DNA of 64,000 nucleotides, from positions 1,367-65,366 of the IMG/VR virus record IMGVR_UViG_3300022666_000141; one strand, 5' to 3'. Both the position numbers and the translations under genes were made by a program. Origin of the DNA: a virus. Taxonomy: Duplodnaviria; Caudoviricetes. Below the pieces are notes generated by a model. That model saw nothing but the letters and a program-made list of their open reading frames with translations, ran no database searches and was not told where the DNA came from. Position 1 is the stretch's first letter. Each line of letters begins with the position of its first letter. Below are positions 1,720-30,877 of the stretch, one piece after another.

Positions 1720-4479
1720 TTATATGGCAAGAGATAAGTACGGGACTGTGGATAAGTCCTCGGAAACGCCAGCTCTATTGAAGGATGCAACTTTGAAATA
1801 AAGGGTTGCACCAGCATCAACAGGCAAGATTGAGTAAGCAACAAAACCACCATCATATACAGCGAAGAGATCTCCTGCTTCAATATCCCCTGTTTCATGA
1901 TATAACACCGTTCCGGCTTCATCATAAATGAAGTCTGTCAATTTCCATATTCTAGGTGAAAGTAACGTTGCTGTCATGAACCGACAGAACTTATCTCCGG
2001 AGTTAGTCCGCACCACAAACAAATTCATTAGTGGTGTGGCAAGTAATTCAGCAAATGTAAGAGCCGAATTTAGCGTATCGTCCGTATCCAAGGCTACGAT
2101 GATATAAGGAGGCTCAGAAGTAGCGGAAGGCGAGCTAGAAGGCGAAGTTGAAGGACTATTTGAAGGTGATGAATCCAAACTTGGGCTGCTTGACGGCGAA
2201 CTACTAACCGATGGGCTGCCAGAAGGGGACGAGCTAGCGGAAGGACTTCCAGAAGGGGAACTAGACGCACTAGGAGAAGATGATGGAGAATCACTGGGAC
2301 TTGAACTTGCCGTCACCGACGGAGAGGAGCTCGGTGATGAATCCAAACTTGGACTACTTGAAGGCGAAGAACTCACACTTGGTGATGCAGAAGGACTGTT
2401 AGAGGGGCTTGCGCTGTTACTCACCTCCATGTTCACACTCAATACGGTACCAGTGATGCCCGATCCGTTCCTTGACGCGACAGATTCGTAAGTACCACCA
2501 GCGGAATATGACCTATAAAGTTCAACCCCATCCCAAGCTTCATTGCCAGATTCAGAGTAAGCAACACCAACTAGATTTCTATCAGTGTACATATTAGGCA
2601 CTCGAAACGCTATCGGGTGTATTACAGAACCAGCAGGATCATTATACGCTGGTGCAACAGGTTGTGAAGCTGGAAGGTAGCTTATCACCCAGCTATTGAA
2701 TGTTCCAGATCCCCCAATAGAAGTTATATTGACAGTTAGTGTATTAACAAAATACCCGAGAACAGTTCCATCCATATAGTTAGAACTACTTCCAGAAGCA
2801 GAGATATGAATCCTGCCACCCTCAACGAAATCAATACCAGCAGCGACCTGAAATGATTTCTCACCAAGTCCTATGGTGATGGATGAACTAGATGCGCATG
2901 TGATTCCAGGTGCGTAAACGAAAGTGTTTACATATGGACTATCATCCATAGCATCAACAACAATCTGATAGTCTGGTTGTTCTTTGATAGCACCTATCCT
3001 TAGATTAGCTGCATTCATTTCAAGATCAGCCTCAGTGAACTCTATCACTTGGCCGGGTCGTAAATCCAAATTCTTCAACCCCAACTTGAATGAGTATGTT
3101 TGTACATCAATCAAGGATTTGCGTAACATTCTGTATGCCATCCTGATAGCTCGCACCCAAGTACAGAAACCTTCAAGGTTGGTCGTTACGTCAAGCAAAC
3201 CATTCTTATCTATATCAACGACATCATCAGCAGTAACAACACCAGTTACATATTCATCTGACCTCTTAGTATATTGAACATTGACTCTATTCTTGTAATC
3301 CTTGCCAGCTTTAGAAGTACCAGCCATAGGAAGTTGGTTTATAATCTTCACTAGATCAGACGTTCCTAACCGTGTCACTGGTGTTTCTACCTTCAACTGA
3401 TGGTGCGAAATGACACCATTCAAATACGTCATGTATCCATCATGATGATTTATTACCGCTTGTAAAGCATCGAGTACGCTAACTTGTGAATCGAATACTA
3501 ATGATATGTAAAGATCATTATCTTCACAATATTTTTGTGATACGGTTGCAGCAGCATAATCCCATACGGAGTCATCAAGACCAAGACCATAAAAATCATT
3601 AGTCAATATGTCCCAGGTTATCGCCTGAGGTAGTACATCTTGTGGGTTGCTTGTTAAATTTATATAAATATTAAATAACTGTACACGCTCATTTAGAGCA
3701 TCAGCAACCCATATTATAGCACTAGTGCCTGTTCCATGAGCACTTAACAAATGAGCCCCATTAAACAACCCAGCACCAACACCCTGGCCACCGGAATGGT
3801 ATGCAAAAGTTCCAGAATTAGTCCACACAGACAACCGATTATTCCCAGAGTCCATAACACAAACATGGTTTTCAACTGAATATGTAATGGACGTTGGATT
3901 GTCCAGCTCCCCATCACCTTGCCCATACAAACCGAATTGGCTAACATAAGACAAGTTGGTGTTCAATCTCTGTATTCTGTTATTTCCAGAATCAACAACA
4001 TAACAATAGTCTTGAGTGGAATTCCAAAACACATCGTTTGGGCTGTTGAATTGAAGATTTCCAGTTCCAGTACTTCCCACAGACTGAATGTAGTTTGCAT
4101 CTAAATCATACACATCAATACAATCATTTTCTTTATCAACCACTAATATGAATTCATCATTAATACAAATACCACCACATCTTCCATCAGAATGACTTAA
4201 AGCGAAACGTGAAACAAAAATTCCGGCGGTTGTGAATATTGATATATACTGTGACCCAGCATCAGTCACGTATATGTGATCTTCTTCAGCACTGTTGGAG
4301 CCAGCTTTAACACCATAAGGATTTACGAACTCCCCTTCCGCAGGATTTGTTGGATTAACTGCAGGAGTTCCAAATTCAGTAGTTTCTCCACCGGCATCTG
4401 GGTATATCTTGCAAATCCCATCCTCATAGAATGAAACGTAGGTGTTATATCCAAAATGATCTACTCCATATGGTCTCAT
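1720..4479 (-). CDS. Tail tip/host-specificity protein: NHL beta-propeller + phage-tail hub domain + Ser/Pro-rich insert
   Basis: NHL repeats (FNSPNDV, LDNPTSI, VMDSGNNR, ADALNERVQLF); hub motif WDILTNDFYGLG; NRVNVQY; ~100-aa SPSS tract; last gene of the tail operon. Confidence 0.8.
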   Translation of the reverse strand: MRPYGVDHFGYNTYVSFYEDGICKIYPDAGGETTEFGTPAVNPTNPAEGEFVNPYGVKAGSNSAEEDHIYVTDAGSQYISIFTTAGIFVSRFALSHSDGRCGGICINDEFILVVDKENDCIDVYDLDANYIQSVGSTGTGNLQFNSPNDVFWNSTQDYCYVVDSGNNRIQRLNTNLSYVSQFGLYGQGDGELDNPTSITYSVENHVCVMDSGNNRLSVWTNSGTFAYHSGGQGVGAGLFNGAHLLSAHGTGTSAIIWVADALNERVQLFNIYINLTSNPQDVLPQAITWDILTNDFYGLGLDDSVWDYAAATVSQKYCEDNDLYISLVFDSQVSVLDALQAVINHHDGYMTYLNGVISHHQLKVETPVTRLGTSDLVKIINQLPMAGTSKAGKDYKNRVNVQYTKRSDEYVTGVVTADDVVDIDKNGLLDVTTNLEGFCTWVRAIRMAYRMLRKSLIDVQTYSFKLGLKNLDLRPGQVIEFTEADLEMNAANLRIGAIKEQPDYQIVVDAMDDSPYVNTFVYAPGITCASSSSITIGLGEKSFQVAAGIDFVEGGRIHISASGSSSNYMDGTVLGYFVNTLTVNITSIGGSGTFNSWVISYLPASQPVAPAYNDPAGSVIHPIAFRVPNMYTDRNLVGVAYSESGNEAWDGVELYRSYSAGGTYESVASRNGSGITGTVLSVNMEVSNSASPSNSPSASPSVSSSPSSSPSLDSSPSSSPSVTASSSPSDSPSSSPSASSSPSGSPSASSSPSGSPSVSSSPSSSPSLDSSPSNSPSTSPSSSPSATSEPPYIIVALDTDDTLNSALTFAELLATPLMNLFVVRTNSGDKFCRFMTATLLSPRIWKLTDFIYDEAGTVLYHETGDIEAGDLFAVYDGGFVAYSILPVDAGATLYFKVASFNRAGVSEDLSTVPYLSLAI
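2113..2420 (-). repeat. Low-complexity Ser/Pro coding tract (SPSSSPS) within the tail tip gene
   Basis: Translates to SASPSNSPSASPSVSSSPSSSPSLD...SPSATSEP with synonymously degenerate codons. Confidence 0.9.
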
Positions 4480-12121: not shown

Positions 12122-12535
12122 TTACGTCGACAGCGTTACTTCGCCAGAAATCTTGATGGTGCAGCTTGCGGTGACCTTGTCGTCGGTGGGAATCTTCAGT
12201 CCCAGTGCCGTAACAAGACCGGTGAATGCAAGCTCTGTGCTTCCCGCATCGGGGAGAACGATCTTGTAGTCCCTCGGATCAGAACTCTCGAAATCGAGCT
12301 TCAGATCGTCGTACCCGTCAATGGTGAAGTTCATTTCCAGCTGAAGTTCACCACCATCACGGAAACCACCGATGAACGTTCTGTAACCACCCTCAGTATC
12401 CAGGGCCGTTGTGTCAATGGTATTCCGGCTCATGTTCGGACCGGAAATATCATTGATCTCACCGATAGCGGTGAACGTTGGACTCGATGCCATGTTCGAC
12501 CGCTGCAGTTCTGCTCCAACTCCTGCAATAGCCAT
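12122..12535 (-). CDS. Major tail (tube) protein
   Basis: FTAIGEINDISGPNMSRNTIDTT.LD...RTFIGG.RDGGEL; lambda-gpV/Phage_tail_2 pattern. Confidence 0.88.
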   Translation of the reverse strand: MAIAGVGAELQRSNMASSPTFTAIGEINDISGPNMSRNTIDTTALDTEGGYRTFIGGFRDGGELQLEMNFTIDGYDDLKLDFESSDPRDYKIVLPDAGSTELAFTGLVTALGLKIPTDDKVTASCTIKISGEVTLST

Positions 12536-12550
12536 GATTTACACCTCCTT

Positions 12551-12940
12551 TTACGATGTTTTCGACCTGTGTATTCTCAGGTTCACAGTGAACAACCACC
12601 TGTTGCTGTCGTCTTTCCCGATACAATTCGGACCGTTCTGCACCCAAATAGCCAAATATCGATAAGACCCAACAACTTCTTCATACAACCCATTCAAAGC
12701 GTCAAATATTTCCTGCGCTAGATCAAAACCCTCCTCGTATGACTTGTTTCGAACCATAACTTGAACAGTTGGCCTCTCAAAACTATAATTCGGAGCCGGC
12801 TCGTACCCACCAGTATCAAAACAAGTTATGATATCATCGGGGCTTGGTGGCATTCCGCCAACAAATAAATCGGTTGCAAACGTCCCCAAAGAAATGGACG
12901 ATGTTTCCAACAAACTTGCTATGTCACGTGCCACACTCAT
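12551..12940 (-). CDS. Tail terminator / minor capsid-type neck protein
   Basis: FDTGG..P...ERPTVQVMVR, DDSNRWLFTVN; position in the neck cluster. Confidence 0.7.
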   Translation of the reverse strand: MSVARDIASLLETSSISLGTFATDLFVGGMPPSPDDIITCFDTGGYEPAPNYSFERPTVQVMVRNKSYEEGFDLAQEIFDALNGLYEEVVGSYRYLAIWVQNGPNCIGKDDSNRWLFTVNLRIHRSKTS

Positions 12941-12949
12941 AACCAGCTC

Positions 12950-13363
12950 CTAATCCAACTTGGTCTTTCTTGCAATGATAGCGAGTATCCTTTTTTCGTT
13001 TTCCTTCAATGGGTCCTCAAGGAACTTCGCCTTCGCTGTAGACTTGGCACCCTTCTTTCTTGCCTTGGATTGAGCTGAAGGTCTCGGGACTGTGAAATTC
13101 GCTCCTGTCATTTCATGTACGAATGGAGCATATGATGCTGTCAACCCCAATTCTGCAACGACACCATCAGGGTGTCTGAATATAGTAGGACCGTACCAAC
13201 TATTAACAAGGTTCGCTGTATCAACTGGGGTTTGCTTCTGCCCTTCCCTGCGAACAAGAGCCCCAGCTTCTATCAGCCCAGCTTGTCCATTAATACTGAT
13301 ACCGTTAATCGCCTTGTTCAGGTTGGCCAGGACTTTGTCCAGTCCGCTTATTCCTTTCTTCAT
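12950..13363 (-). CDS. HK97 gp10-like tail completion protein
   Basis: TPVDTANL..S, YAPFVHE, AKFLEDP motifs. Confidence 0.8.
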   Translation of the reverse strand: MKKGISGLDKVLANLNKAINGISINGQAGLIEAGALVRREGQKQTPVDTANLVNSWYGPTIFRHPDGVVAELGLTASYAPFVHEMTGANFTVPRPSAQSKARKKGAKSTAKAKFLEDPLKENEKRILAIIARKTKLD

Positions 13364-13701
13364 AACAACACCTTCCTGAATGTGAAGGTTCCTGACAAAT
13401 TCTGCGACGAATTGACGGAACGAATTTCTTTAGCACCTGCAACAGACCTCGGATCACCCTCATTGGCTGACGATAACGTGGCCAGAGTTCCAAGATATAC
13501 ATACCCGCCAAGAACCAATTCCGAAGCCGGGTATACCACCGAGGAAGAAGTATGTTCACTTCCGTCCCTCGATACGAAACGCTCTTGCTTATCCTCCCAT
13601 CGGACAGACACTTCAACAGGTTCCGCAAAGATTGGTTCACCATATCCGTTCACTCCAGTCAAGGCCCAATAAACGGCCGTTTGATTTCTTCGAATTTTCA
13701 T
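13360..13701 (-). CDS. Head closure/stopper protein
   Basis: QTAVYWA..GVNGYGEP.F..PVEVSVRWE; neck synteny. Confidence 0.7.
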   Translation of the reverse strand: MKIRRNQTAVYWALTGVNGYGEPIFAEPVEVSVRWEDKQERFVSRDGSEHTSSSVVYPASELVLGGYVYLGTLATLSSANEGDPRSVAGAKEIRSVNSSQNLSGTFTFRKVLL

Positions 13702-14075
13702 AAGATGTACCTTGGCGTTATCTGCGTTCTGAGCGTTTCGATGGTTGCTTTCGGTTTCTCAAGATTCGCCAGAAGGCCCGTGGTGTCCAACATTTTGACA
13801 TGTTGACCATATGTGGTGGCGTCAAGTCCTTTTCCACCGGCAGATGCTGTCTGATATGTATTGGACGCATCGCCCACACTCTCGTTCGTCAGTCTTGGAT
13901 CCATCGTACAAGCAAGGTGGGCTGACAGATAGAGTTCGATCTGCTTCAACCTTGCATCTGACAAACCTTGATCAGCCAACGTCTCATCCACAATCAAAGA
14001 CGCTGTTGCAATGAATGGCGTAGTCTCGATGGTAGTATCAAGAATCTTTTTTACCTCGTTATCAGTAACTCTCAT
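13698..14075 (-). CDS. Head-tail adaptor (DUF4054-like)
   Basis: IELYLSAH, SVGDASNTY, TTYGQ..MLD motifs. Confidence 0.7.
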   Translation of the reverse strand: MRVTDNEVKKILDTTIETTPFIATASLIVDETLADQGLSDARLKQIELYLSAHLACTMDPRLTNESVGDASNTYQTASAGGKGLDATTYGQHVKMLDTTGLLANLEKPKATIETLRTQITPRYIL

Positions 14076-14076
14076 G

Positions 14077-14349
14077 TTATACCACCTTTATAGCAAGAGT
14101 CTTGGAGTACACTGCTTCATCAGACGCTGTAATCGACACAGTGATTTCATATGATCGACCAACAGTTCCACCTTGAAACCAGATATACACGATAGAATCA
14201 TCATTCTGCAATCTGGCTGGGCTGGTAATTCCGTCATCATCGGTAACTACAACAGAATCAATGATTTCTTCCTGAAGATCCTCGGTGAAATCTATGCCAA
14301 TGTAGTACTGTTCGGATTGTTTCTTCGGATCAGCTACAAAATCACTCAT
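14077..14349 (-). CDS. Small acidic virion protein, fibre/collar adaptor-like (Gp77-like)
   Basis: K..EQYYIGIDF...WFQGGTVGRSYEITVSI pattern resembles phage fibre-adaptor proteins. Confidence 0.5.
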   Translation of the reverse strand: MSDFVADPKKQSEQYYIGIDFTEDLQEEIIDSVVVTDDDGITSPARLQNDDSIVYIWFQGGTVGRSYEITVSITASDEAVYSKTLAIKVV

Positions 14350-14361
14350 ATCGAACCTCAC

Positions 14362-16539
14362 TTATCTTGGCATGGATTCAAACAACCATGTTTTTGGTGG
14401 AACCTCAAACATCCTTGTCCTATGCGGAACTTCAAATATCTGTCTCGGATGACAATCAACAATTCCAGTAGATGCACTAGGACTGCGACTTGGTGATGCA
14501 CTTGGTGACCTACTTGGGCTCGAACTTGGTGATGCGCTCGGGGAGCCACTTGGACTGGTTGACGGTGTCTCCGATGGTGAGCTGCTTGGTGTCTCGCTTG
14601 GGCTGCTCGAAACTGAACTGCTTGGTGAAGCAGACGGTGACGAACTTGGTGTTTCGCTTGGACTGCTGCTTACGCTACTACTCGGACTTCCAGAAGGGCT
14701 ACTTGATTCAGAGCTACTCGGACTGCTTGATTCTGATGCGCTTGGTGATGCGCTTGGACTGCTGCTAACACTACTACTTGGCGACCCGCTAGGCGAGCTA
14801 GAAGGAGTCTCAGATGGACTTGCGCTCGCTGAAGCTGAAGGACTTGCAGACGGACTGCTTGACACCGACGAGCTTGGCGATGCTGACTCGGAACTGCTTG
14901 GTGACTCACTTGGCGACCCGCTAGGACTTGTACTTGCACTTCCACTTGGACTAGCAGAAGGTGTCTCGCTTGGTGATGCACTTGCTGAGCTTGAAGGACT
15001 AGCACTTGGTGACCCACTGGGAGAAGTGCTTGGGCTTCCACTCGGGGATGAACTTGCAGATGGACTACTACTTGGGCTTCCAGAGGGCGACCCACTCTCA
15101 GAAGCCGAAGGGCTGCTACTCACCGAAGAACTAGGAGAACCGCTCGGACTGCTTGAAGGTGACGAGGAAGGGGAAGAGCTTGGACTTCCCGATTCAGAAG
15201 CACTAGGCGAAGACGAGGGGCTTCCTGACGGTGTATTTGAAGGTGACGAACTCTCAGAAGGACTTGTAGACGGAGAGCTACTCGGACTACTTGAAACCGA
15301 CCCACTAGGTGAAGCCGATTCGCTTGATGACGGTGAAGAGCTTGGGCTCGCACTTTCTGAAGCCGATGGTGAACTGGACGGGCTTCCCGATGGTGAGCTA
15401 CTTACACTAGAACTTGGACTACTGCTAGGTGTGCTCGATTCGCTGGCAGAAGGCGAACTGGATTCTGAAGCCGAAGGGCTGCTTGATTCTGATGCTGATG
15501 GAGAAGATGATGGGCTACTTGATTCCGAAGCAGAAGGGCTGCTACTCGGACTTGAGCTTGGTGATGAACTTTCACTGGCAGACGGGGAACTGCTCGGGGA
15601 GCCCGAAGGCGAACTCGACACAGACGAGCTGGGAGAGGAACTCGTGCTGGACGATGGGCTCCCCGATGGTGATGAACTTGGACTTGAACTCTCACTCGGT
15701 GATGCTGAAGCAGACGCACTTGGGCTGGCGGACTCACTAGCCGAAGGACTACCGCTTTCTGAAGCAGATGGACTACTAATACCAGACGATGAAGGCGAAC
15801 TACTCGGACTCCCCTGTTCGGATGTCATCCCGCCCCATACTGGAATCGGCTCGAAAACTTGATAGGGATTATCGCTGATGCTTTTGATTTCGGCATCGGT
15901 CAATACTCTGTCGTAAACTCGCACGCAATGGGCTTCGCAATCAATTGGCGAATAGCTCCACTCATTGCCCCCATTGAATAGTGTCACATTGTAGGGAAGC
16001 CTTGTTCCTGAACCATCCCACTCAGTTGATAGGCTTGTGATGCGTTTGCCATCGTGATATAGTTTCGGAGCAGAAAGGCCATCCCAAGAGCCAGCCAATG
16101 ATTTAGCTGTGGTAAGAGCGTTTGCAGCCCTAGTCCACGGATAACCACTACTGGTAAATACTTGCATTTCGTATGAGCCATCATTTACCCAGAGAAATGG
16201 GCCACCACCACGGTAAAATCCTTGGTCACCACTGTTGAGCGAGCGGAAGTTGCCGCAGATAATCACGGTTCCCCGTTGTTCAATAATGTCTCCGGTATTT
16301 GTGACTATCCCATGCTGGCTGCCGCTCCCAGTGAACCTTATGCCATCTGGATGTCGCGGGCTACCTGCTTCATAAAGTGTTGCCCTACTGCCATCTACGG
16401 CATTAATAACTGCGCTGCCTGTTTCTTGGAAATCCCAACACCGGATAAGCCCCTGCGTACTCCAATGACCGTCACTTCTGAGCCTCGTTCCTGCTGGTGG
16501 CTTGCTCGTCCAATCAATTTTTATCGGTATCAGCGCCAT
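14362..16539 (-). CDS. LamG/ConA-like lectin domain + ~450-aa Ser-rich repeat stalk + short C-terminal tail
   Basis: LamG motifs WDFQE and LYHDG...VRVYDRVLTDAEI, then SxSx repeats and the C-terminus CHPRQIFEVPHRTRMFEVPPKTWLFE. Confidence 0.82.
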   Translation of the reverse strand: MALIPIKIDWTSKPPAGTRLRSDGHWSTQGLIRCWDFQETGSAVINAVDGSRATLYEAGSPRHPDGIRFTGSGSQHGIVTNTGDIIEQRGTVIICGNFRSLNSGDQGFYRGGGPFLWVNDGSYEMQVFTSSGYPWTRAANALTTAKSLAGSWDGLSAPKLYHDGKRITSLSTEWDGSGTRLPYNVTLFNGGNEWSYSPIDCEAHCVRVYDRVLTDAEIKSISDNPYQVFEPIPVWGGMTSEQGSPSSSPSSSGISSPSASESGSPSASESASPSASASASPSESSSPSSSPSGSPSSSTSSSPSSSVSSSPSGSPSSSPSASESSSPSSSPSSSPSASESSSPSSSPSASESSSPSASESSSPSASESSTPSSSPSSSVSSSPSGSPSSSPSASESASPSSSPSSSESASPSGSVSSSPSSSPSTSPSESSSPSNTPSGSPSSSPSASESGSPSSSPSSSPSSSPSGSPSSSVSSSPSASESGSPSGSPSSSPSASSSPSGSPSTSPSGSPSASPSSSASASPSETPSASPSGSASTSPSGSPSESPSSSESASPSSSVSSSPSASPSASASASPSETPSSSPSGSPSSSVSSSPSASPSASESSSPSSSESSSPSGSPSSSVSSSPSETPSSSPSASPSSSVSSSPSETPSSSPSETPSTSPSGSPSASPSSSPSRSPSASPSRSPSASTGIVDCHPRQIFEVPHRTRMFEVPPKTWLFESMPR
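14470..15812 (-). repeat. ~1.35-kb degenerate Ser-rich coding repeat (SPSS/SPSA/SESS tetrads)
   Basis: Ser occupies nearly every second residue over ~450 aa; the DNA units are not identical. Confidence 0.92.
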
Positions 16540-16548
16540 AATAACTCC

Positions 16549-16938
16549 CTATGCGCTTATCCCATTTTTCCTGACATAGGCGTTGACGGTAATGGTTTCC
16601 GATGCGGTTCCCAGCTTCCGACATTCAAGGCGGAAGGCGTAGCAGCCAGAGACGACGATGGACTTCTCGAAAGTCGTCGATGCCAGCCTGCCGATGGAGC
16701 CGGATACAAAAGCGATGTCATCGTAGACTTCGGTGGTATCGTCCAGTGTCGTTACAATGCGGAAGCCGAGGTCGTTGGCTGGAGTGGCTGGGAAGGCGGC
16801 AATGATTTGCACAGTTGCGCTCTCGCCAGGAAGCAGAGTGACTTTGCTCGATACGTTATCGAGATACGAGGCATCGCTATCGACGGTATCATCGACCGAC
16901 TGCCCACTCATAATTTGTGTTTTATTTCCCCAGGACAT
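16549..16938 (-). CDS. Hypothetical beta-rich protein, probably structural
   Basis: 129-aa ORF tightly packed between the glycosyltransferase gene and the Ser-rich gene. Confidence 0.6.
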   Translation of the reverse strand: MSWGNKTQIMSGQSVDDTVDSDASYLDNVSSKVTLLPGESATVQIIAAFPATPANDLGFRIVTTLDDTTEVYDDIAFVSGSIGRLASTTFEKSIVVSGCYAFRLECRKLGTASETITVNAYVRKNGISA

Positions 16939-17688
16939 TTATAGCTCCTTTCTGTATTCCTCCATTACGTTTACAAACTTGCCCCAAGGCTCAAGCTCAT
17001 ACCTTCTATTCTTGCCACGCCTTGGGCCGGTGAAATTGCTTCCGTGTCGAATGTCGAGGTTTGGTTGTTCTGTTCTGAACGTGGAACAAGTAAACCTCGC
17101 CAAATGCTTTTCAAGGTAAGGCTGCAAATATTTACATTCACCACTGACTGCAATACGAGCAGCTTCGACTACTTCAGGTGGAAACGCACCAGGCTCACCC
17201 AGTCGTTTCAATATCCTGAGCCCACCCTCAAGGAAGAACATCCTGTCTTCAATGGACTCTATCAAGAGTTTCCTATCACAAACCAATTGGGATAATGCCT
17301 TCCTGCCATCATTCCAGTAGGAGTACATCCCGTTCAGCTCTGGATGATTGCCTCCCCACTGAACAAACCAACAATTGGTGTTGTACCAGAAGGTCGTATT
17401 ATCTGGAGGAGTCCAAGCAACGTGCTCTTTTGTGTACATCACGTCATGTTCAGCAATCATGACGAATTCGGTTGTTGCTTGTTTCAAACCTTCAAGTTGC
17501 TGAACGTAAATGTTGTACCAATTCCTTCCAATATCACCAACATTTATGTTATGGCCAAAATCTAATGGCTTCTGGCTAACAGATATTATGGAACAATCGC
17601 CTGAAACTCTGCGAAGCTGATCCCTACAAACCTTCGCTATCGATTCTTCAAGCCGACTGTCGGTTATGTAGATGATTGTCTTATTCAT
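16939..17688 (-). CDS. Glycosyltransferase-like (GT-A fold), paralogue A
   Basis: TIIYIT...GLKQATTEFVMIAEHDVMY, a DxD-like motif after a hydrophobic strand. Confidence 0.65.
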   Translation of the reverse strand: MNKTIIYITDSRLEESIAKVCRDQLRRVSGDCSIISVSQKPLDFGHNINVGDIGRNWYNIYVQQLEGLKQATTEFVMIAEHDVMYTKEHVAWTPPDNTTFWYNTNCWFVQWGGNHPELNGMYSYWNDGRKALSQLVCDRKLLIESIEDRMFFLEGGLRILKRLGEPGAFPPEVVEAARIAVSGECKYLQPYLEKHLARFTCSTFRTEQPNLDIRHGSNFTGPRRGKNRRYELEPWGKFVNVMEEYRKEL

Positions 17689-18361
17689 AGTATTTCACGA
17701 TTTCTGTACCCCGTCCCCAATAAGGAATTTCAATGGCAAGGTACGAGCCAAGTTTTTTCCTATGACGTTTCTGCCGGTCCTCAGTACCATTGTCATGTGA
17801 CAATTGAACTATCGGTGTTCGAGAGTAGAACGTAACAGCTTTTCTCTGCGTTACACCAAGTCCCCTCTCTATGTTGTTCCTGCCACATTCCCCCATGAAC
17901 TGCATAGGAAAGTTATTGTTTGGGTGCTTGTCAAACCGTTCTTGCAACGCCTCAATCAACAATTCCCTCGGTGCTATCAACGAACAATTACTGATTCGCT
18001 GGCGAACTGAAAACAGTATCGGTGGCCATGTAAAAAGTGACCATCGACTGAAGTTATACGCAAACTCGCCATTCTGTGGGCGAAAGCAACGATAATGCTC
18101 CTCGGAGTACAACGTGTCATCTTCTGCAACCCCTATGAATGGGGTTTCTGCACGTTTCGCACCAACAAGTAATTGACGATATATGTTGGCATAATCCTTC
18201 TTATCGTTTTCCAATATGTTCAACCCGAAATCAACGGGCTTTCTTGATATCGTGATTACTGGGAAATCACCGACAGCCTTTTCTAGGACTTGTCGATGGA
18301 AAGACACCCACTTGCTGGGCACCTCATTCGCAGTAAGATATATGACAGTCAGATCTTTCAT
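17681..18361 (-). CDS. Glycosyltransferase-like (GT-A fold), paralogue B
   Basis: LTVIYLT...GAKRAETPFIGVAEDDTLY; aligns by eye with 16939-17688. Confidence 0.68.
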   Translation of the reverse strand: MKDLTVIYLTANEVPSKWVSFHRQVLEKAVGDFPVITISRKPVDFGLNILENDKKDYANIYRQLLVGAKRAETPFIGVAEDDTLYSEEHYRCFRPQNGEFAYNFSRWSLFTWPPILFSVRQRISNCSLIAPRELLIEALQERFDKHPNNNFPMQFMGECGRNNIERGLGVTQRKAVTFYSRTPIVQLSHDNGTEDRQKRHRKKLGSYLAIEIPYWGRGTEIVKYYE

Positions 18362-19854
18362 TTCTTCAGTAACCATCCCCCCTTGGTGAAGCCGAATACA
18401 AACCGCGCATCGAAATCAGTCAGTTTGTAATCTCTGTTTCTGGCAAGGAACCAATCCCGAGCCTCACCAGGCCCAACAAGTTCGCCTTGTCTACCGTAAC
18501 AATCTTCAACAACCATGAATTGTCCTGATGTTACGATATCGGCATATCTATGAAGCTCCCACTTGACCTGTTGACGAGCATGGTTACCATCTATGGACAA
18601 CATGACTTTCATCGGACGATCCTGCACATTGCTTTTTAATCGAATCATTTCTTTGATTTCAGCAATGATTTTTTCATCTTTGGAATCGCCTTGTAAATAA
18701 GTTATGCGTGGATGTTGGACCAATGGCCCTCTTGGAGTGGGGTCAATGGATACAACGCAGCCATTTCCCGCCATTTCAAGGAAATCGGCGAACATCAATG
18801 CCGATGCACAAAACGCCGTACCAATCTCAATGATAAAGTCCGGACGCCGTTCCCATATCGCCATCTGGTACAAAACTATGTCGGTTGGCATCTTGATCAT
18901 CTTGATACCACGCCAACGGGGATCATGTCCCTTGAGGTGTATGTTTTTGTAAAAGAACGACTGCAGTTCTGTGCGCTTTCCATCTTCCATATCAGGAACT
19001 CTCCCTTCCCATGTAGGGGGATTGAATTTGTCGACCAACCATTGAATATTTCGTTTCTGCTGTGGCCACTTGTTGTTCAGCCACAAATCCATAGAATATT
19101 TTCTGGCATTATCAACCTGTCGACCTGATATTGGATATGGGAATCCACCATCCCCTCCCCTAAACCAATGAGCAAACCAGGTATTCTTATTAACTTTGAG
19201 TGCTCCACCTGACAGCCACGCTTTGAGAGCAACCTCTATTCCCTGCTGTCCCCATGAACCGTGATTCTCATCACACCCACCAAGTTCAAGAAACCTGGCT
19301 TTGTGCATGAAAAAGCACGGTCCCATACAACACATCGTATCGTCTATCAGCTCAGTACGGTCGTGCCATCTGCGAAAATCCTTGCCCGTATAATACTGGG
19401 CACGCATTTCGTCTTTATCGTTCCAACCGATATACATATAATCGGTTCGTTTATGTAGTTTGGGTTGCCACCGAACAACATCTAAGTTGTACATTCGTGG
19501 GATGACAGTCCAATCATATTCACAGTCAGCAGCTAGCTTTACATCAAAACCTTTATCAACTGCACAATGCGCGTCCAACTTCATTATGAACTTGCCACGA
19601 GCGATGGACGCCGCTCTGTTTATAGATTGTCTTTGTCCTAATGATTCGGTGTGGTGAAGGAGTGTTACTCTCGGGTGATCCAATATAGGAGGATCGGGCC
19701 AGTACCCATCGCATATGGCAATTATCTCAGTATCACCCTCGATGTTTGCCAGAACATTTTCTATCGTCTTTTGCAAGAACTTTTCGTTTCTTGCGGGTAT
19801 TATTACTGTCAATAGCACGGTCAAAACCCCCCAGTTTCGCCTTTCTAATACCAC
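18358..19854 (-). CDS. GT2/GT27 (ppGalNAc-T-like) glycosyltransferase fused to a CmcI-type SAM O-methyltransferase
   Basis: TVIIPARNE, LDAHC (DxH), GGCDE..SWG..GIEVALKAWLSGG...AHWFR; C-terminal WRG...K.PTD...YQ..IWE.RPDFIIEIGT. The true start may be GTG at 19818. Confidence 0.8.
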   Translation of the reverse strand: MVLERRNWGVLTVLLTVIIPARNEKFLQKTIENVLANIEGDTEIIAICDGYWPDPPILDHPRVTLLHHTESLGQRQSINRAASIARGKFIMKLDAHCAVDKGFDVKLAADCEYDWTVIPRMYNLDVVRWQPKLHKRTDYMYIGWNDKDEMRAQYYTGKDFRRWHDRTELIDDTMCCMGPCFFMHKARFLELGGCDENHGSWGQQGIEVALKAWLSGGALKVNKNTWFAHWFRGGDGGFPYPISGRQVDNARKYSMDLWLNNKWPQQKRNIQWLVDKFNPPTWEGRVPDMEDGKRTELQSFFYKNIHLKGHDPRWRGIKMIKMPTDIVLYQMAIWERRPDFIIEIGTAFCASALMFADFLEMAGNGCVVSIDPTPRGPLVQHPRITYLQGDSKDEKIIAEIKEMIRLKSNVQDRPMKVMLSIDGNHARQQVKWELHRYADIVTSGQFMVVEDCYGRQGELVGPGEARDWFLARNRDYKLTDFDARFVFGFTKGGWLLKK

Positions 19855-19935: not shown

Positions 19936-20556
19936 CTACCGACACGGCACCACATCCCCAAGGTTTACTGAAGGAAACATGGTCAACGCGCTGTCCGGCG
20001 TAGCATTTAATATCTCGAGCCCGAGCTTATTCGCATCGGATAAAATCTTTTCGAACGGTGGAAGAAACCGTTTTTCGTATATATCAATCCTTGGCCGATG
20101 CTTATGGTTGGTGTGCCAGTTGTGTTGACCTTCACGAACTTTCATATCGTACCCGATCAAAACTATTCGACTAGCACCAAGATGCATGGCAAGGTTTATC
20201 GCCGACCCACCTGAACTCTTGTTCCAAACAACCTTATTCCTGATAGAAGTCAATCCATAACCTTCGTTCCGATTAACATGTAACACCCTCGGCAACTTCT
20301 TACTTGTTGGAGGGCATCCAAACACAACCCCTTCATACGATCTGAGCAAAGTCTTGTTCCACGCATACCAACGCTCATCCCCGAACCATGTTACATCAAC
20401 CCAATTACCGAGCTTAAATGCGTCGTTGACTCCAACAACATGACATTTCATAATAGGTGACAAATCCATGTCTTTTACGCTTGGACCGCCACCTATTATG
20501 AAAACTGTCCCGTCCCAGAGTTTAGGGATGTTCGGTAGACGCTGAAACAAGTGCAT
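19936..20556 (-). CDS. Maf/MptE(DUF115)/sialyltransferase-like protein
   Basis: VFIIGGGPS, VVGVNDA, SSGGSAINLAMHLGASRIVLIGYDM, ILNATP. Confidence 0.65.
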   Translation of the reverse strand: MHLFQRLPNIPKLWDGTVFIIGGGPSVKDMDLSPIMKCHVVGVNDAFKLGNWVDVTWFGDERWYAWNKTLLRSYEGVVFGCPPTSKKLPRVLHVNRNEGYGLTSIRNKVVWNKSSGGSAINLAMHLGASRIVLIGYDMKVREGQHNWHTNHKHRPRIDIYEKRFLPPFEKILSDANKLGLEILNATPDSALTMFPSVNLGDVVPCR

Positions 20557-27612: not shown

Positions 27613-28353
27613 TTATCCTAACTTTGATTGAAATGGCTCGACAGTCAAACGTTCTGCACGAAAAGCCTTTGACCCCCACTTCCGATCGAAATACCGTTTA
27701 TTGACAACATGCAATTTTGCATAATCAGCGGGTTTGGACTTGGAATGAGCTTGGTGCATTACGACCAGATCGTCCCTTTCCACTATTCGAATGTCGTTAC
27801 TAAGTATTGTATTCCTGAAATCGTCGTCCTCGAAACAAACTCCTTTCGAATATTCTTCATCAAACCCACCAATCCTGTTATACGTTTCTTTCGAAAGGGC
27901 CGAACAAAAATGAACTTTCACAGACCGATGAACAGAGTGTTGATACCATTGTCTCGTTGGTATTCGACAAGCACATACAACGTACTGATCAGGATTCTGT
28001 TCAAACGCTTGGTCCAATCCTTCCAATACATTCGTCTCATGCAAACACTCAGGATTGGTGATTACCAAGAACTGTCCTTGTGCTCTACGAGCCAACTCAT
28101 TGAATGCTGTACTTGGGTTCCAACAATCCGATGTTCCCGTAATGATGGTTTGGATATTCAATACCGGAGAAAAGTTTCCAAGCACCTTCACCAAAGCAAG
28201 GTGTTCAATCTGATCCATCATATTCTTGTAATCTTCCCCGATAAGTATCTCATAGTCATTTCGACGATACAAATGCAAGAATGAGGAAAGAGTCACAGCT
28301 AGTTGTTGTGCTCGTTTATGAAAGGGCATAAGTAAACTATACTTCACAGACAT
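27613..28353 (-). CDS. Glycosyltransferase, GT2/GT7C-like
   Basis: YSLLMPF, IGGFDEEY..G..FEDDDF, HQAH. Confidence 0.8.
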   Translation of the reverse strand: MSVKYSLLMPFHKRAQQLAVTLSSFLHLYRRNDYEILIGEDYKNMMDQIEHLALVKVLGNFSPVLNIQTIITGTSDCWNPSTAFNELARRAQGQFLVITNPECLHETNVLEGLDQAFEQNPDQYVVCACRIPTRQWYQHSVHRSVKVHFCSALSKETYNRIGGFDEEYSKGVCFEDDDFRNTILSNDIRIVERDDLVVMHQAHSKSKPADYAKLHVVNKRYFDRKWGSKAFRAERLTVEPFQSKLG

Positions 28354-29153
28354 ATTTCAACCGCCTTTCGACAAATAGCATATTTATTCGCCATATCTTT
28401 GATATTGTCTTCGGTAACGTTTATTTCTCGTTTAGAACACTCAGGATTGCCGGCAAACCAATGATATCCTATACAATTAGGGTGTTTTGGCAATTCTATA
28501 TCGGTAAAATACTTCACCACATCCTGGTGTAAACGCCACGGGTAAACCAACGTATGATTGATGTATCCCGGTGCTATCCCATTCCACTTGAACAAGAACT
28601 TGTCAAGGAGATGGGCACCAAACGCTTGATAATCATTCTGAGGAATTCTGGAAAAACCGAAAGCAAACAACGAATGAAAAAACACCTTTCCCCAAGGCCC
28701 CCCACTTGTCAAAAACCCGATCGCCTGAAACAATTTGGTTCTATTGCCCGTTGCGGGGTACCTACAGAGCCCAATATCCGGCAATTCTTCCATCGTACTC
28801 TGCTTTACATGACTTGTATACAGGATGTCCATGTCTGACCATAGCCCACCGACTGTCCCTAGCAGATACCATCGAAGTAAATCAGACTTATGAACTTCGG
28901 GTGTGTTATTTGGAATTCCCAACATATCAAAATCAATTTCCTTGGTAACCAAACGTTCGAGATAATCAGGTCCCTGGTACGTATTTCCCTGTTCCCCACT
29001 CCCCCACGGCCGACGCCTGGAGATGACCTTCGGCACCCATACGTTTATCTCCCAATCAGGATTCAACATCTGAAAACTCTTGACCGTGAGATACCGCATG
29101 TATGACAGGGATTGGTTCTTTCCCCAGTAGAAGTGGACAATTTTAGGTATCAC
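28344..29153 (-). CDS. Glycosyltransferase, GT32-like (DxD sugar-binding)
   Basis: MIPKIVHFYW, SDLLRW..L...GGLWSDMD. Confidence 0.8.
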   Translation of the reverse strand: MIPKIVHFYWGKNQSLSYMRYLTVKSFQMLNPDWEINVWVPKVISRRRPWGSGEQGNTYQGPDYLERLVTKEIDFDMLGIPNNTPEVHKSDLLRWYLLGTVGGLWSDMDILYTSHVKQSTMEELPDIGLCRYPATGNRTKLFQAIGFLTSGGPWGKVFFHSLFAFGFSRIPQNDYQAFGAHLLDKFLFKWNGIAPGYINHTLVYPWRLHQDVVKYFTDIELPKHPNCIGYHWFAGNPECSKREINVTEDNIKDMANKYAICRKAVEICL

Positions 29154-29331
29154 GATTCAAGTCCTTAAGAATCTGTTTTTTGACTGCCAACGCTGAACAT
29201 TCCCAATTCGACTTAATCTTAACAGGCAATTCTTCCCATGTTGGCAGATACTCTCCTCGTATAGATACTCCTCCACACGATCTACAATAAGCTCTATATG
29301 CTGTTCTTGCCAGTTCTGTCACCGATGTCAT
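29143..29331 (-). CDS. Small hypothetical protein
   Basis: 62-aa ORF overlapping both neighbours (coupled). Confidence 0.55.
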   Translation of the reverse strand: MTSVTELARTAYRAYCRSCGGVSIRGEYLPTWEELPVKIKSNWECSALAVKKQILKDLNRDT

Positions 29332-30314
29332 ACGAACTCCTTATGATCAATATCAGACAACAGTCCCTTCAATACACGGTTATAAGCACCATAATAACAC
29401 GTTACACAAGCCTTGGCTCCTTGGAACGGTTTGTTTCTCTTGCCAGAGGTAAAATTCCAAATCGTCCCCAAACACAATTCTTTAGGGAAATTCTTGGTTG
29501 GGGAGGGTAAAGCATACTGAACACCACAACAAGCATAGACTTTCAGATCAGGTGTCACAACAGGTTTCAAATAACAGATATAACAGTCCTGTTCTTTCTC
29601 AGGATTCGCTCGAGCCTGAAAGATAACAGGAACTGTGCACAGTTCCAAGTAATCTTCAAGTTCTTTCTCAACTTCCTGCATCGGGACTTCATCGGCGCAC
29701 AGAAGATCGGCAACAAACCGTATATGCGTTGCCTTCAAAGCCATAGCAAGGGCAATCGTTTGTTTGATGCGTTCTATATTCGGATTCTTGGATACTACGT
29801 AGCTGATTGCCCACCCAATATGACGTGTTAAGGAAACCAGTTGTAGCAAATTAGCGACATGATCCTGGGAAAACTCATCCCGATCGTCTCCATAACTGAT
29901 ACGACACCAGGACAACGTATTAAGACTAAATGCCTTGTTAGGGTGCAGAAGCAGCCCATTCGTTACTAACCCAGTCTTGATTTCCTTCCAGTAAGCGAAT
30001 TCAAGAAGGTTTTGTAGATATGGGTACGTCATGGGTTCACCGCCACCCGTTATCGTCATTCCAACGGTGCCATGAGCAGCCAGGAGATCCACGGCTCGCA
30101 CCATATCACGAAGAGACATTTCCTGCGTACGATCTTCGTTTGCACAGGAACAGAACGAACAATTCAAATTACACTTGTTTGTAGGGATGAACTGAACGTG
30201 TCTCGGTGGTATACTCCTTGTTCTAACAATACTAGCAATCGTTTTATGATCCTGCAACAACTTATACGGGATCGAATCCGCAGAAGTATACGACGTAACC
30301 GCATCGGCCATCAC
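29328..30314 (-). CDS. Radical SAM enzyme with C-terminal SPASM/twitch-like Cys
   Basis: CNLNCSFC, TGGGEP, VTNG, C-terminal CYIC...CC...CVTCY. Confidence 0.85.
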   Translation of the reverse strand: MMADAVTSYTSADSIPYKLLQDHKTIASIVRTRSIPPRHVQFIPTNKCNLNCSFCSCANEDRTQEMSLRDMVRAVDLLAAHGTVGMTITGGGEPMTYPYLQNLLEFAYWKEIKTGLVTNGLLLHPNKAFSLNTLSWCRISYGDDRDEFSQDHVANLLQLVSLTRHIGWAISYVVSKNPNIERIKQTIALAMALKATHIRFVADLLCADEVPMQEVEKELEDYLELCTVPVIFQARANPEKEQDCYICYLKPVVTPDLKVYACCGVQYALPSPTKNFPKELCLGTIWNFTSGKRNKPFQGAKACVTCYYGAYNRVLKGLLSDIDHKEFV

Positions 30315-30877
30315 ACTCTCCTTTTATAACGTCGACTGGCTTGATAATGACAAATCACCGGTTCTATATTCCCATACACCCTTGGACTAAGATCGTATAT
30401 CCACGTAAACTGGGGTGGTAATCGACAAAAATTAATCAAGCCACGTCTTCTCTCCACCACAGACTGTAACGTTCTCTGATCCCACTTCTTTGAGTTCTTT
30501 CTGTTCTCATGGGCCCAATCCGCTAACAACAAAACAGTTCGAACCGTTGGGTTGACCCATAACGTACCCGATAACAGTTCCCGGCCTCTGAAATAGTGTG
30601 CAGCAAAATCAATATTCACGTAGTCTATCAGAACAGGAAACTGTTTGAACCGAGCATCAGAATCCACATACAAGAATGGCTTTCTGTTCAGATCAGCCAC
30701 GGCTCTCAGTAGGATTTGAGCTTTTTCCTGACAATTCGCTTCCCACGAACCTTTATTCTTGACAGGATACACAACGACTTCCCGAATACCAACTTCCCTG
30801 GCAGAGGCCGCCATCAACCGAACTTCGTCCTCGTAAGGAGTGTCAACGGTATAGAAACTCACCACAGGGACCATCAC
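30311..30877 (-). CDS. Nucleotide-diphospho-sugar transferase-like (GT77/GT8-like)
   Basis: K...L...FLYVDSDA, SGTLWV, WDQRTLQ. Confidence 0.7.
   Translation of the reverse strand: MMVPVVSFYTVDTPYEDEVRLMAASAREVGIREVVVYPVKNKGSWEANCQEKAQILLRAVADLNRKPFLYVDSDARFKQFPVLIDYVNIDFAAHYFRGRELLSGTLWVNPTVRTVLLLADWAHENRKNSKKWDQRTLQSVVERRRGLINFCRLPPQFTWIYDLSPRVYGNIEPVICHYQASRRYKRRV

Follow-up and report, generated by a model that had tools for sequence, protein, structure and literature searches.

A putative C-terminally docked, mucin-type virion fibre with a swappable lectin-fold head in an uncultured siphophage

Serine-rich repeat proteins (SRRPs) such as GspB, Fap1, SraP and PsrP combine a tract with serine in alternate positions, an N-terminal binding domain, a distinct C-terminal attachment element and adjoining glycosyltransferase (GT) genes, and in animal mucin-type O-glycosylation GT27 enzymes act on Pro/Thr/Ser tandem repeats. 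Among phages that glycosylate their own particle, the mycobacteriophages were the sole case found in our literature searches; phage-encoded GTs and an O-methyltransferase are reported to modify virion proteins of mycobacteriophages Che8, Corndog and Myrna (Freeman et al. 2023, as cited in PMC11600133 and PMC12619734), a modification that blunts antibody recognition. In the podophage GP4, gp77 is named a fibre-tail adaptor by Pfam (PF23148) and has been likened to the collar proteins of other phages (PMC13730344). Here we present a computational analysis of a 64,000-nucleotide stretch of DNA (the window; positions 1,367 to 65,366 of IMG/VR record IMGVR_UViG_3300022666_000141, a complete viral genome of 65,366 bp that has direct terminal repeats and belongs to an uncultured siphophage) and of its open reading frame (ORF) 14362-16539 on the minus strand, which together with its neighbouring genes recalls these systems in part. 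Its product is read as a C-terminally docked, mucin-type virion fibre, probably O-glycosylated and with a swappable lectin-fold head, and we put the probability of this reading at roughly 0.55.

The ORF is open over 725 codons and falls into a head (residues 1-243), a stalk (244-690) and a tail (691-725), which were compared between the window and two sister phages, L004 and L075. The relatives L004, L005 and L011 were reached through capsid protein comparison, and L075 only by a word-indexed protein search with the tail sequence; a tail peptide scan of viral contigs gave no match, and a degenerate DNA pattern for the tail gave 0 matches in metagenome contigs and the L004 contig only among viral contigs. 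In L004 (capsid protein 98%) the orthologue is 667 aa long, with residues 1-31 identical to those of the window and a stalk and tail that are nearly identical apart from three in-frame indels; the core of its head (residues 32-207) is unrelated. DNA homology between the two phages ends at 16448 and restarts at 15916, the core having 39.5% nucleotide identity and the flanks 89-99%, and of the 35 tail codons 31 are identical, 4 synonymous and 0 non-synonymous.

The second sister goes further in the same direction. L075 is 97.8% identical to the window in the capsid protein, 100% in the tail tube, 97.8% in the gp77-like homologue described below and 95% in the GT27-like enzyme, and its gene order is that of the window without the LamG head and without a 129-aa gene that adjoins the head gene. 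The corresponding slot (7789-9579 of L075) holds an unrelated 596-aa protein, P0274, directly upstream of the gp77-like gene. P0274 starts with an unrelated N-terminal domain, which a 55-aa SPSx linker joins to a second domain, likewise unrelated; from there a 10-aa SPSx linker leads to the tail, here with two of the three repeats. The protein has no Pfam match and no PDB match, and hhalign shows no significant similarity to the LamG head family (probability 0.7%). Its second domain, of about 300 aa, could be an enzyme. Across these three genomes one C-terminal peptide stays constant while the head above it is a different one each time and is thus swappable; therefore the tail is probably the docking end. 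In mosaic phage fibres, the usual reasoning goes, the end that stays constant sits on the particle and the one that varies is exposed to the outside.

The tail is composed of three 9-aa repeats (IFEVPHRTR, MFEVPPKTW and LFESMPR, following the pattern FE(V/S)(P/M)), 35 aa in total, in which neither an LPXTG motif (searched as LPxT[GAS]) nor a hydrophobic run is present. Directly past the fibre stop codon, with no intergenic gap, begins the gene of a 94-aa protein that matches PF23148 at 43.1 bits against a 27-bit cut-off and PDB entry 8JOU_D at E 8e-8, and which is nearly as long as GP4 gp77 itself (94 versus 93 aa). The gp77-like gene is found in all three sisters and is missing from L005. GP4 is a podophage with conventional fibres, whereas the gp77-like gene of the window lies in a siphophage, beside the head-tail connector genes, and we infer its partner: most likely the fibre tail would dock on a gp77-like collar at the head-tail junction, a proposal drawn from one lineage. 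Two LamG head plus SPSx stalk proteins that otherwise differ (L055, 13900-15441, and L057, 6704-8236) share a similar end of about 55 aa (...YNGSSWV...), and this end module may serve for docking in a different lineage, as the FEVP tail would here.

The stalk is 447 aa long and contains 268 Ser, 82 Pro, 33 Ala, 22 Glu and 18 Gly residues (60% Ser, 18% Pro). In one alternate register serine fills 96% of the positions, in the other 23%; proline follows proline at a spacing of 4 (50 times) or 8 (28 times), and the repeat units are SPSS, SPSG, SPSA, SPSASESS and SPSSSVSS. All six serine codons are in use (AGT 80, AGC 58, TCA 51, TCG 35, TCT 32, TCC 12), Tandem Repeats Finder reports three weak short arrays only, and the direct-repeat copies in the stalk DNA are 60-76% identical. 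Aligned with L004, 393 stalk codons divide into 304 identical, 78 synonymous and 11 non-synonymous ones. Because the changes against L004 in stalk and tail are mostly synonymous, the reading frame is real and under purifying selection, and the comparison supports the view that the stalk sequence is held by selection at the protein level. A second SPSx tract of the same repeat vocabulary was found in the distal tail protein of the same phage (Pfam domains Phage-tail_3 and NHL), where it occupies residues 688-788 and interrupts the C-terminal part.

Much of this anatomy had been anticipated by a sequence-only reading of the window. Its stalk of some 450 aa with serine at almost every second position agrees with the figures above, its argument from synonymously degenerate repeat DNA to selection on the protein is borne out by the codon comparison with L004, and the N-terminal LamG/ConA-like domain that it proposed is recovered by structure prediction and structure search, as described below. 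It had described the tail as a unique stretch of 30 aa, which has to be corrected to the 35-aa repeat peptide; of the C-terminal anchor that it saw there, the constant C-terminal end under three heads stands, and an anchor of the wall type does not, given a repeat peptide of this kind. The comparison of repeat length among homologues that it suggested gives 447, 389 and about 65 aa for the window, L004 and L075, respectively. It further estimated a whisker of 100-150 nm, close to the length of the phage tail. A rise of 0.25-0.36 nm per residue would give the stalk a length of 112-161 nm, and the tail predicted from the 1057-aa tape measure protein would be about 159 nm long by the rule of 0.15 nm per residue from the lambda literature, so the estimated dimension is reasonable; a length matched to the tail is no conserved requirement, because the stalks of the sisters are 389 and about 65 aa long.

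That the stalk would be O-glycosylated by enzymes of the phage itself is suggested by the company that it keeps. The first gene of the insert encodes a 498-aa protein in which a GT27-like glycosyltransferase is fused to a CmcI-type methyltransferase, and its closest solved relatives are the animal polypeptide GalNAc-transferases (ppGalNAc-transferases) T1 and T2 (1XHB and 2FFU; E 1e-10 to 3e-8 over residues 4-260, phmmer). The motifs of GT27 can be aligned in it, namely DxH (LDAHC), the Gal/GalNAc-T motif WG..G.E......W..GG and the third metal-binding His (F-A-H-W-F-R). The likeness to animal mucin-type O-glycosylation thus extends over the alignment of the catalytic domain and a Ser/Pro-rich, highly repetitive, acceptor-like tract. 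Unlike the animal enzymes, the phage enzyme is predicted to be soluble and cytoplasmic, has no type II membrane anchor (its N-terminus enters the first strand of the GT fold at once) and is fused to a methyltransferase; unlike animal mucins, the tract is Ser-only rather than Thr-rich.

Fifteen further viral loci with relatives of the GT27-like domain (35-69% identical) were scanned in six frames, and 50 phage loci amounting to 665 kb (capsid relatives, 37 loci found with the LamG-head profile, and L001-L003) served as controls. Ser-x/Pro tracts of 39-529 aa were found on the strand of the enzyme in 11 of the 15 enzyme loci, usually a few kb downstream, and in none of the 50 controls (Fisher's exact p 1.5e-9, or 3e-8 with three related loci merged). 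Of the four tract-free loci, two stop at the enzyme itself, another stops about 2 kb beyond it and the last carries a distant relative (35% identity). Two contigs of metagenome-assembled genomes with the enzyme also carry Ser-x tracts, and the genome bins that contain the enzyme belong to unrelated phyla and look like binned viral contigs. Many of the tract proteins elsewhere are likewise built from a LamG-like head followed by the tract and a small C-terminal module, and one of those from the other enzyme loci belongs to the head family of the window (profile E 9e-40). In the S-P-S-x repeat each serine has a proline at -3, -1, +1 or +3, and ppGalNAc-transferases prefer proline at just these positions. 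Comparative genomics of this kind points to a stalk that is probably O-glycosylated by phage enzymes. The sequence-only reading, in so far as it linked the stalk to glycosylation, is thereby strengthened by an enzyme that lies in the same accessory insert and co-occurs with such tracts elsewhere.

Two paralogous genes of 231 and 249 aa accompany the enzyme. Their products are 34% identical to each other and have 460 homologues, of which 0 carry a Pfam domain, and in the loci examined the family always lies beside the GT27-like enzyme. In three loci (L056, 9992-11839; L058, 6634-9138; L059, 10001-11428) the fusion partner of the GT27-like domain comes from this family instead of being the CmcI methyltransferase; such a Rosetta-stone link suggests that the two act in one pathway. 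An atlas cluster of the family bears the automatic name 'Glycosyltransferase', and its profile gave nothing significant against PDB sequences; the evidence for a putative glycosyltransferase role consists of the fusions and the automatic cluster name. The 231-aa gene (17681-18376 on the minus strand of the window, 13737-14432 in L004) shows 100% nucleotide identity between the two sisters and its flanking genes 73-96%, which suggests a very recent recombination patch within the insert.

With regard to the head, an AlphaFold2 (AF2) model built on 57 homologues is an all-beta sandwich in the form of a two-sheet jelly roll (mean predicted local distance difference test score, pLDDT, 81.8; predicted template-modelling score, pTM, 0.83). 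Its Foldseek matches in the PDB are a trans-sialidase lectin domain, the Hc-N domain of clostridial neurotoxin and the carbohydrate-binding module (CBM) of arabinanase AbnA (E about 1e-7, probability 1.00), and those in BFVD include many proteins of phages with a ConA-like or LamG-like annotation, among which are virion and minor tail proteins. The model thus supports a ConA-like/LamG jelly-roll fold. An exhaustive HMMER search with the head retrieved 228 representative homologues, one of which (P0001) carries PF13385. Strongly conserved in the family is the N-terminal motif KPPxGTPLRSDGHWSVQGL (family form KPPxGTxLRxDGHWSxxGL; window KPPxGT.LRSDGHWS.QGL), as is the closing strand NP(W/Y)Q(I/V)(Y/F)EP (NPYQVFEP in the window, NPWQIYEPE in homologues), and the middle is variable. 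At the N-terminal motif, which forms an integral strand of the fold, pLDDT reaches 92-97. In L016 (8004-9695) a 563-aa family member bears two tandem LamG heads, in which the 'N-terminal' motif recurs internally; the motif is therefore considered a part of the fold and no separate attachment peptide.

The window fibre thereby shares the fold of the phage LamG/ConA-like minor tail and decoration proteins (Laminin_G_3), in a family with at least 228 representatives bearing the N-terminal motif. Many members are head-only proteins of 230-260 aa that end tail modules, some of them in temperate phages, and others continue into Ala-, Thr- and Gly-rich repeats at the C-terminus; unlike the window fibre, none of the retrieved homologues has a Ser-rich extension, the maximum being 17% Ser. 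In 10 loci, window included, the head gene has a gene of 129-131 aa immediately upstream; the companions are 39-46% identical to the window copy with a mean column identity of 76%, and their conservation far exceeds that of the head. Companion and head gene together close the tail module, beside the integrase, in L001 and L002, which are contigs of temperate phages. The companion is modelled as an eight-strand jelly roll with tied generic matches only (Z 8-9.4), which comprise GOLD domains, CBMs, viral capsid jelly rolls, XepA and the BPP-1 cement protein, none of them specific. Because L075 has neither the 129-aa gene nor a LamG head, the 129-aa protein appears to go with the head rather than with the virion.

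The setting of these genes is that of a minus-strand structural operon. It starts with small and large terminase genes, a sugar block of three GT families and a radical SAM enzyme, the portal and a Mu-F-like protein, continues with scaffold, decoration and major capsid proteins (MCP), a conserved 206-aa gene and six genes of interest here (GT27-like/methyltransferase fusion, 231 aa, 249 aa, 129 aa, fibre, gp77-like), and ends with DUF4054 and HK97-gp10-like connectors, the tail terminator, the tail tube, the tape measure, an RcGTA-like distal tail and an endolysin with an SLT domain; the genome has no tRNA genes. Within this morphogenesis operon the fibre gene has the capsid genes on one side and the head-tail connector genes on the other. 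The six genes are regarded as an accessory insert because of the comparison with L005 and L011: in L005 (MCP 67% identical) all six are absent and the 206-aa gene runs straight to the connector. At the same site L011 (capsid 52% identical) carries, over 12385-17829, a GT2 gene, two methyltransferase-like genes, a sulfotransferase and a 520-aa protein, and the 21 kb examined in this phage hold no Ser-x tract. The position between the capsid and connector genes has the appearance of a hot spot for genes that modify the virion. The coordinates of the features are collected in Table 1.

Table 1. Features of the fibre locus and of related elements in the window; support names the evidence for each assignment.
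Feature	Coordinates	Strand	Support
725-aa fibre protein (head, Ser-x stalk, docking tail; putative)	14362..16539, stop codon included	(-)	Open frame; purifying selection against sister phage L004
ConA/LamG jelly-roll head, residues 1-243	15811..16539	(-)	Pfam below cut-off; AF2; Foldseek; 228 representative homologues
Head core, residues 32-207, replaced wholesale between sisters	15919..16446	(-)	DNA homology breaks; protein alignment
(S-P-S-x)n stalk, residues 244-690, proposed O-glycan acceptor	14470..15810	(-)	Composition; periodicity; degenerate DNA; codon comparison with L004; co-occurrence with GT27-like enzyme
Tail of three 9-aa repeats, residues 691-725, proposed docking peptide	14365..14469	(-)	100% conserved in L004; also on the L075 protein
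94-aa gp77-like protein (gp77 of podophage GP4: collar / fibre-tail adaptor), candidate docking partner	14077..14361	(-)	Pfam PF23148; PDB 8JOU_D
129-aa jelly-roll companion of the LamG head family	16549..16938	(-)	Directly upstream of head gene; AF2 pLDDT 81
Two paralogous genes, 231 and 249 aa, of a family travelling with the GT27-like domain	16939..18376	(-)	Homologues; fusions
498-aa fusion, GT27-like glycosyltransferase and CmcI-type methyltransferase, first insert gene	18358..19854	(-)	Pfam Glycos_transf_2 and RMNT_CmcI; PDB relatives
Second sugar block between terminase and portal, four genes	27613..30877	(-)	Pfam
Second SPSx tract, about 100 aa, in the 919-aa distal tail protein (ORF 1720-4479)	2116..2418	(-)	Translation; six-frame scan

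The four genes of the sugar block encode a GT2/GT7C-like transferase, a GT with a DXD sugar-binding motif, a radical SAM enzyme and a nucleotide-diphospho-sugar transferase, and together with the insert they give the phage at least four Pfam-supported glycosyltransferase genes. The 206-aa gene (19936-20556, minus strand), which adjoins the capsid gene, carries the PHROG label 'alpha-2,3-sialyltransferase' and has a weak MptE-like match as its only Pfam match. The label was rejected as evidence for the glycosylation cassette, the gene being a core gene of all relatives including the insert-free L005; its product may be a glycosyltransferase or a head-completion protein.

Several observations weigh against a C-terminally docked and glycosylated fibre. 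The Pfam match of the head to Laminin_G_3 (PF13385; E 3.4e-5, 24.5 bits) lies under the 27.6-bit cut-off, and its Foldseek TM-scores against ConA-like lectin domains are just 0.5-0.6. The enzyme is without the ricin-B lectin domain of animal ppGalNAc-transferases, its C-terminal half being the CmcI/RMNT methyltransferase. The varying stalk length among the sisters argues against a precise spacer role, and the pairing of tail and gp77-like protein is seen in three phages of one lineage, where any conserved virion component could be the partner. Head-only relatives, in turn, must attach via the head or the 129-aa protein, which leaves room for docking by the N-terminus. This last point can be extended to a fibre of inverted polarity, in which the LamG head and the 129-aa protein would sit on the virion, the stalk would be a free, outward glycan brush and the C-terminal repeats would serve as a distal binding or chaperone motif. 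The position and strong conservation of the 129-aa gene in those 10 loci speak for it, as do the head-only members that attach in temperate phage tail modules without any C-terminal extension and the general tendency of phage fibres to attach by the N-terminus. We nevertheless regard it as unlikely, for L075 keeps the tail and the gp77-like protein while it is without the LamG head and the 129-aa gene, the exchange of the head core between near-identical phages is typical of an exposed ligand-binding part, and the N-terminal motif is an integral strand that recurs inside the tandem protein of L016. A comparably small chance is given to a stalk that is an unglycosylated flexible spacer or entropic bristle, with the neighbouring GTs acting on host polysaccharide, lipid carriers or other virion proteins. 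Ser/Pro-rich low-complexity linkers do exist unmodified, and L011 has its sugar enzymes at the same site with no tract in the part examined; such a spacer is difficult to reconcile with the tight association of enzyme and tract (11/15 against 0/50 loci), with protein O-GalNAc transferases as the closest solved relatives of the enzyme, with prolines placed as ppGalNAc-transferases prefer them, or with x-position residues that are conserved between sisters (11 non-synonymous changes in 393 codons).

The accessory nature of the insert would also suit a soluble or released late protein that is no component of the virion, for instance a glycan-binding decoy or a matrix-binding factor freed at lysis. 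This appears very improbable for a gene in the structural operon with no gap to the homologue of a solved virion collar protein, when the same kind of tract stands in the distal tail protein and LamG-like relatives are annotated in BFVD as virion or minor tail proteins. That the protein is a true SRRP of Gram-positive type taken from a host is hardly credible, even though serine alternates with other residues along a tract hundreds of residues long and a binding domain lies N-terminal to the repeats. Membership in the GspB/Fap1/SraP type was rejected on five of six defining features: the KxYKxGKxW signal-peptide motif is absent from the fibre, whose longest run of AVLIFMW residues is 4 and whose N-terminus is a jelly-roll strand; in place of a short SRR1 and a long SRR2 (serine-rich repeat regions) around the binding region there is a single tract and a domain folded from residue 1; the LPXTG motif and a hydrophobic segment are missing; and PF07517 (SecA) and PF00534 (GT4) have 0 matches in the complete 65-kb genome, while control genomes match. 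In contrast to SRRPs, then, the fibre is without accessory Sec (aSec) export and GtfA/B, stands in a phage context beside a GT27-like enzyme, and has proline every 4 or 8 residues of its stalk; the SLT-domain endolysin and the RcGTA-like tail point to a Gram-negative host. The layout of binding domain, repeats and C-terminal end that the sequence-only reading likened to SRRPs is accordingly an analogous one and the family membership falls away; by analogy, the fibre may work like an SRRP or a mucin without being an SRRP.

For the C-terminally docked, mucin-type fibre that we favour, the following course can be proposed. The 35-aa repeat peptide would dock the fibre on the particle, most likely at the gp77-like collar of the head-tail junction. 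The 447-aa (S-P-S-x)n stalk would be the acceptor of O-glycosylation encoded by the phage, which the GT27-like/methyltransferase fusion would start; elongation or tailoring of the glycans would fall to the 231/249-aa paralogues and the second GT block. The product would be a hydrated and stiffened bottle-brush of mucin type, roughly 110-160 nm in length, at whose far end the ConA/LamG head and its 129-aa jelly-roll companion could form an exchangeable ligand-binding module, the head probably binding a surface glycan reversibly. Beyond the window, we tentatively suggest, with less than even confidence, that in many uncultured phages a GT27-like enzyme and its companion family glycosylate (S-P-S-x)n stalks, which would act as a universal joint between unrelated heads (lectin folds and possibly enzymes) and a docking peptide specific to the lineage, with sisters swapping heads by recombination at or near the stalk.

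Compared with the mycobacteriophages, the likeness lies in GT and O-methyltransferase genes in or beside the structural genes and is, for the present phage, one of gene content. The acceptors reported there are the capsid and tail-tube subunits themselves; here they are proposed to be a fibre stalk of hundreds of residues and a tract in a tail protein, and the enzyme family appears to differ. The head, the 129-aa protein and the GT27-like domain found no match by tblastn in 50,697 GenBank phage records, and literature searches returned no description of a system of mucin-like phage stalk and GT27-like enzyme. The fibre extends known kinds, namely virion glycosylation and decoration or neck fibres; new from the window is the three-sister comparison, which marks the C-terminal peptide as constant, the head as exchangeable and the gp77-like collar homologue as the candidate partner.

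Overall, if the mucin-like stalk and the GT27-like enzyme act as proposed, they would represent a second and architecturally different solution to virion glycosylation, in a system of enzyme and stalk that appears to be widespread in environmental phages. The lineage described here offers a testable model of a plug-in fibre, in which an exchangeable head would be mounted through a sugar-coated spacer on a docking peptide that stays constant; such a model would bear on the evolution of host range, on the origin of GT27 enzymes and on engineered display scaffolds on phage particles.

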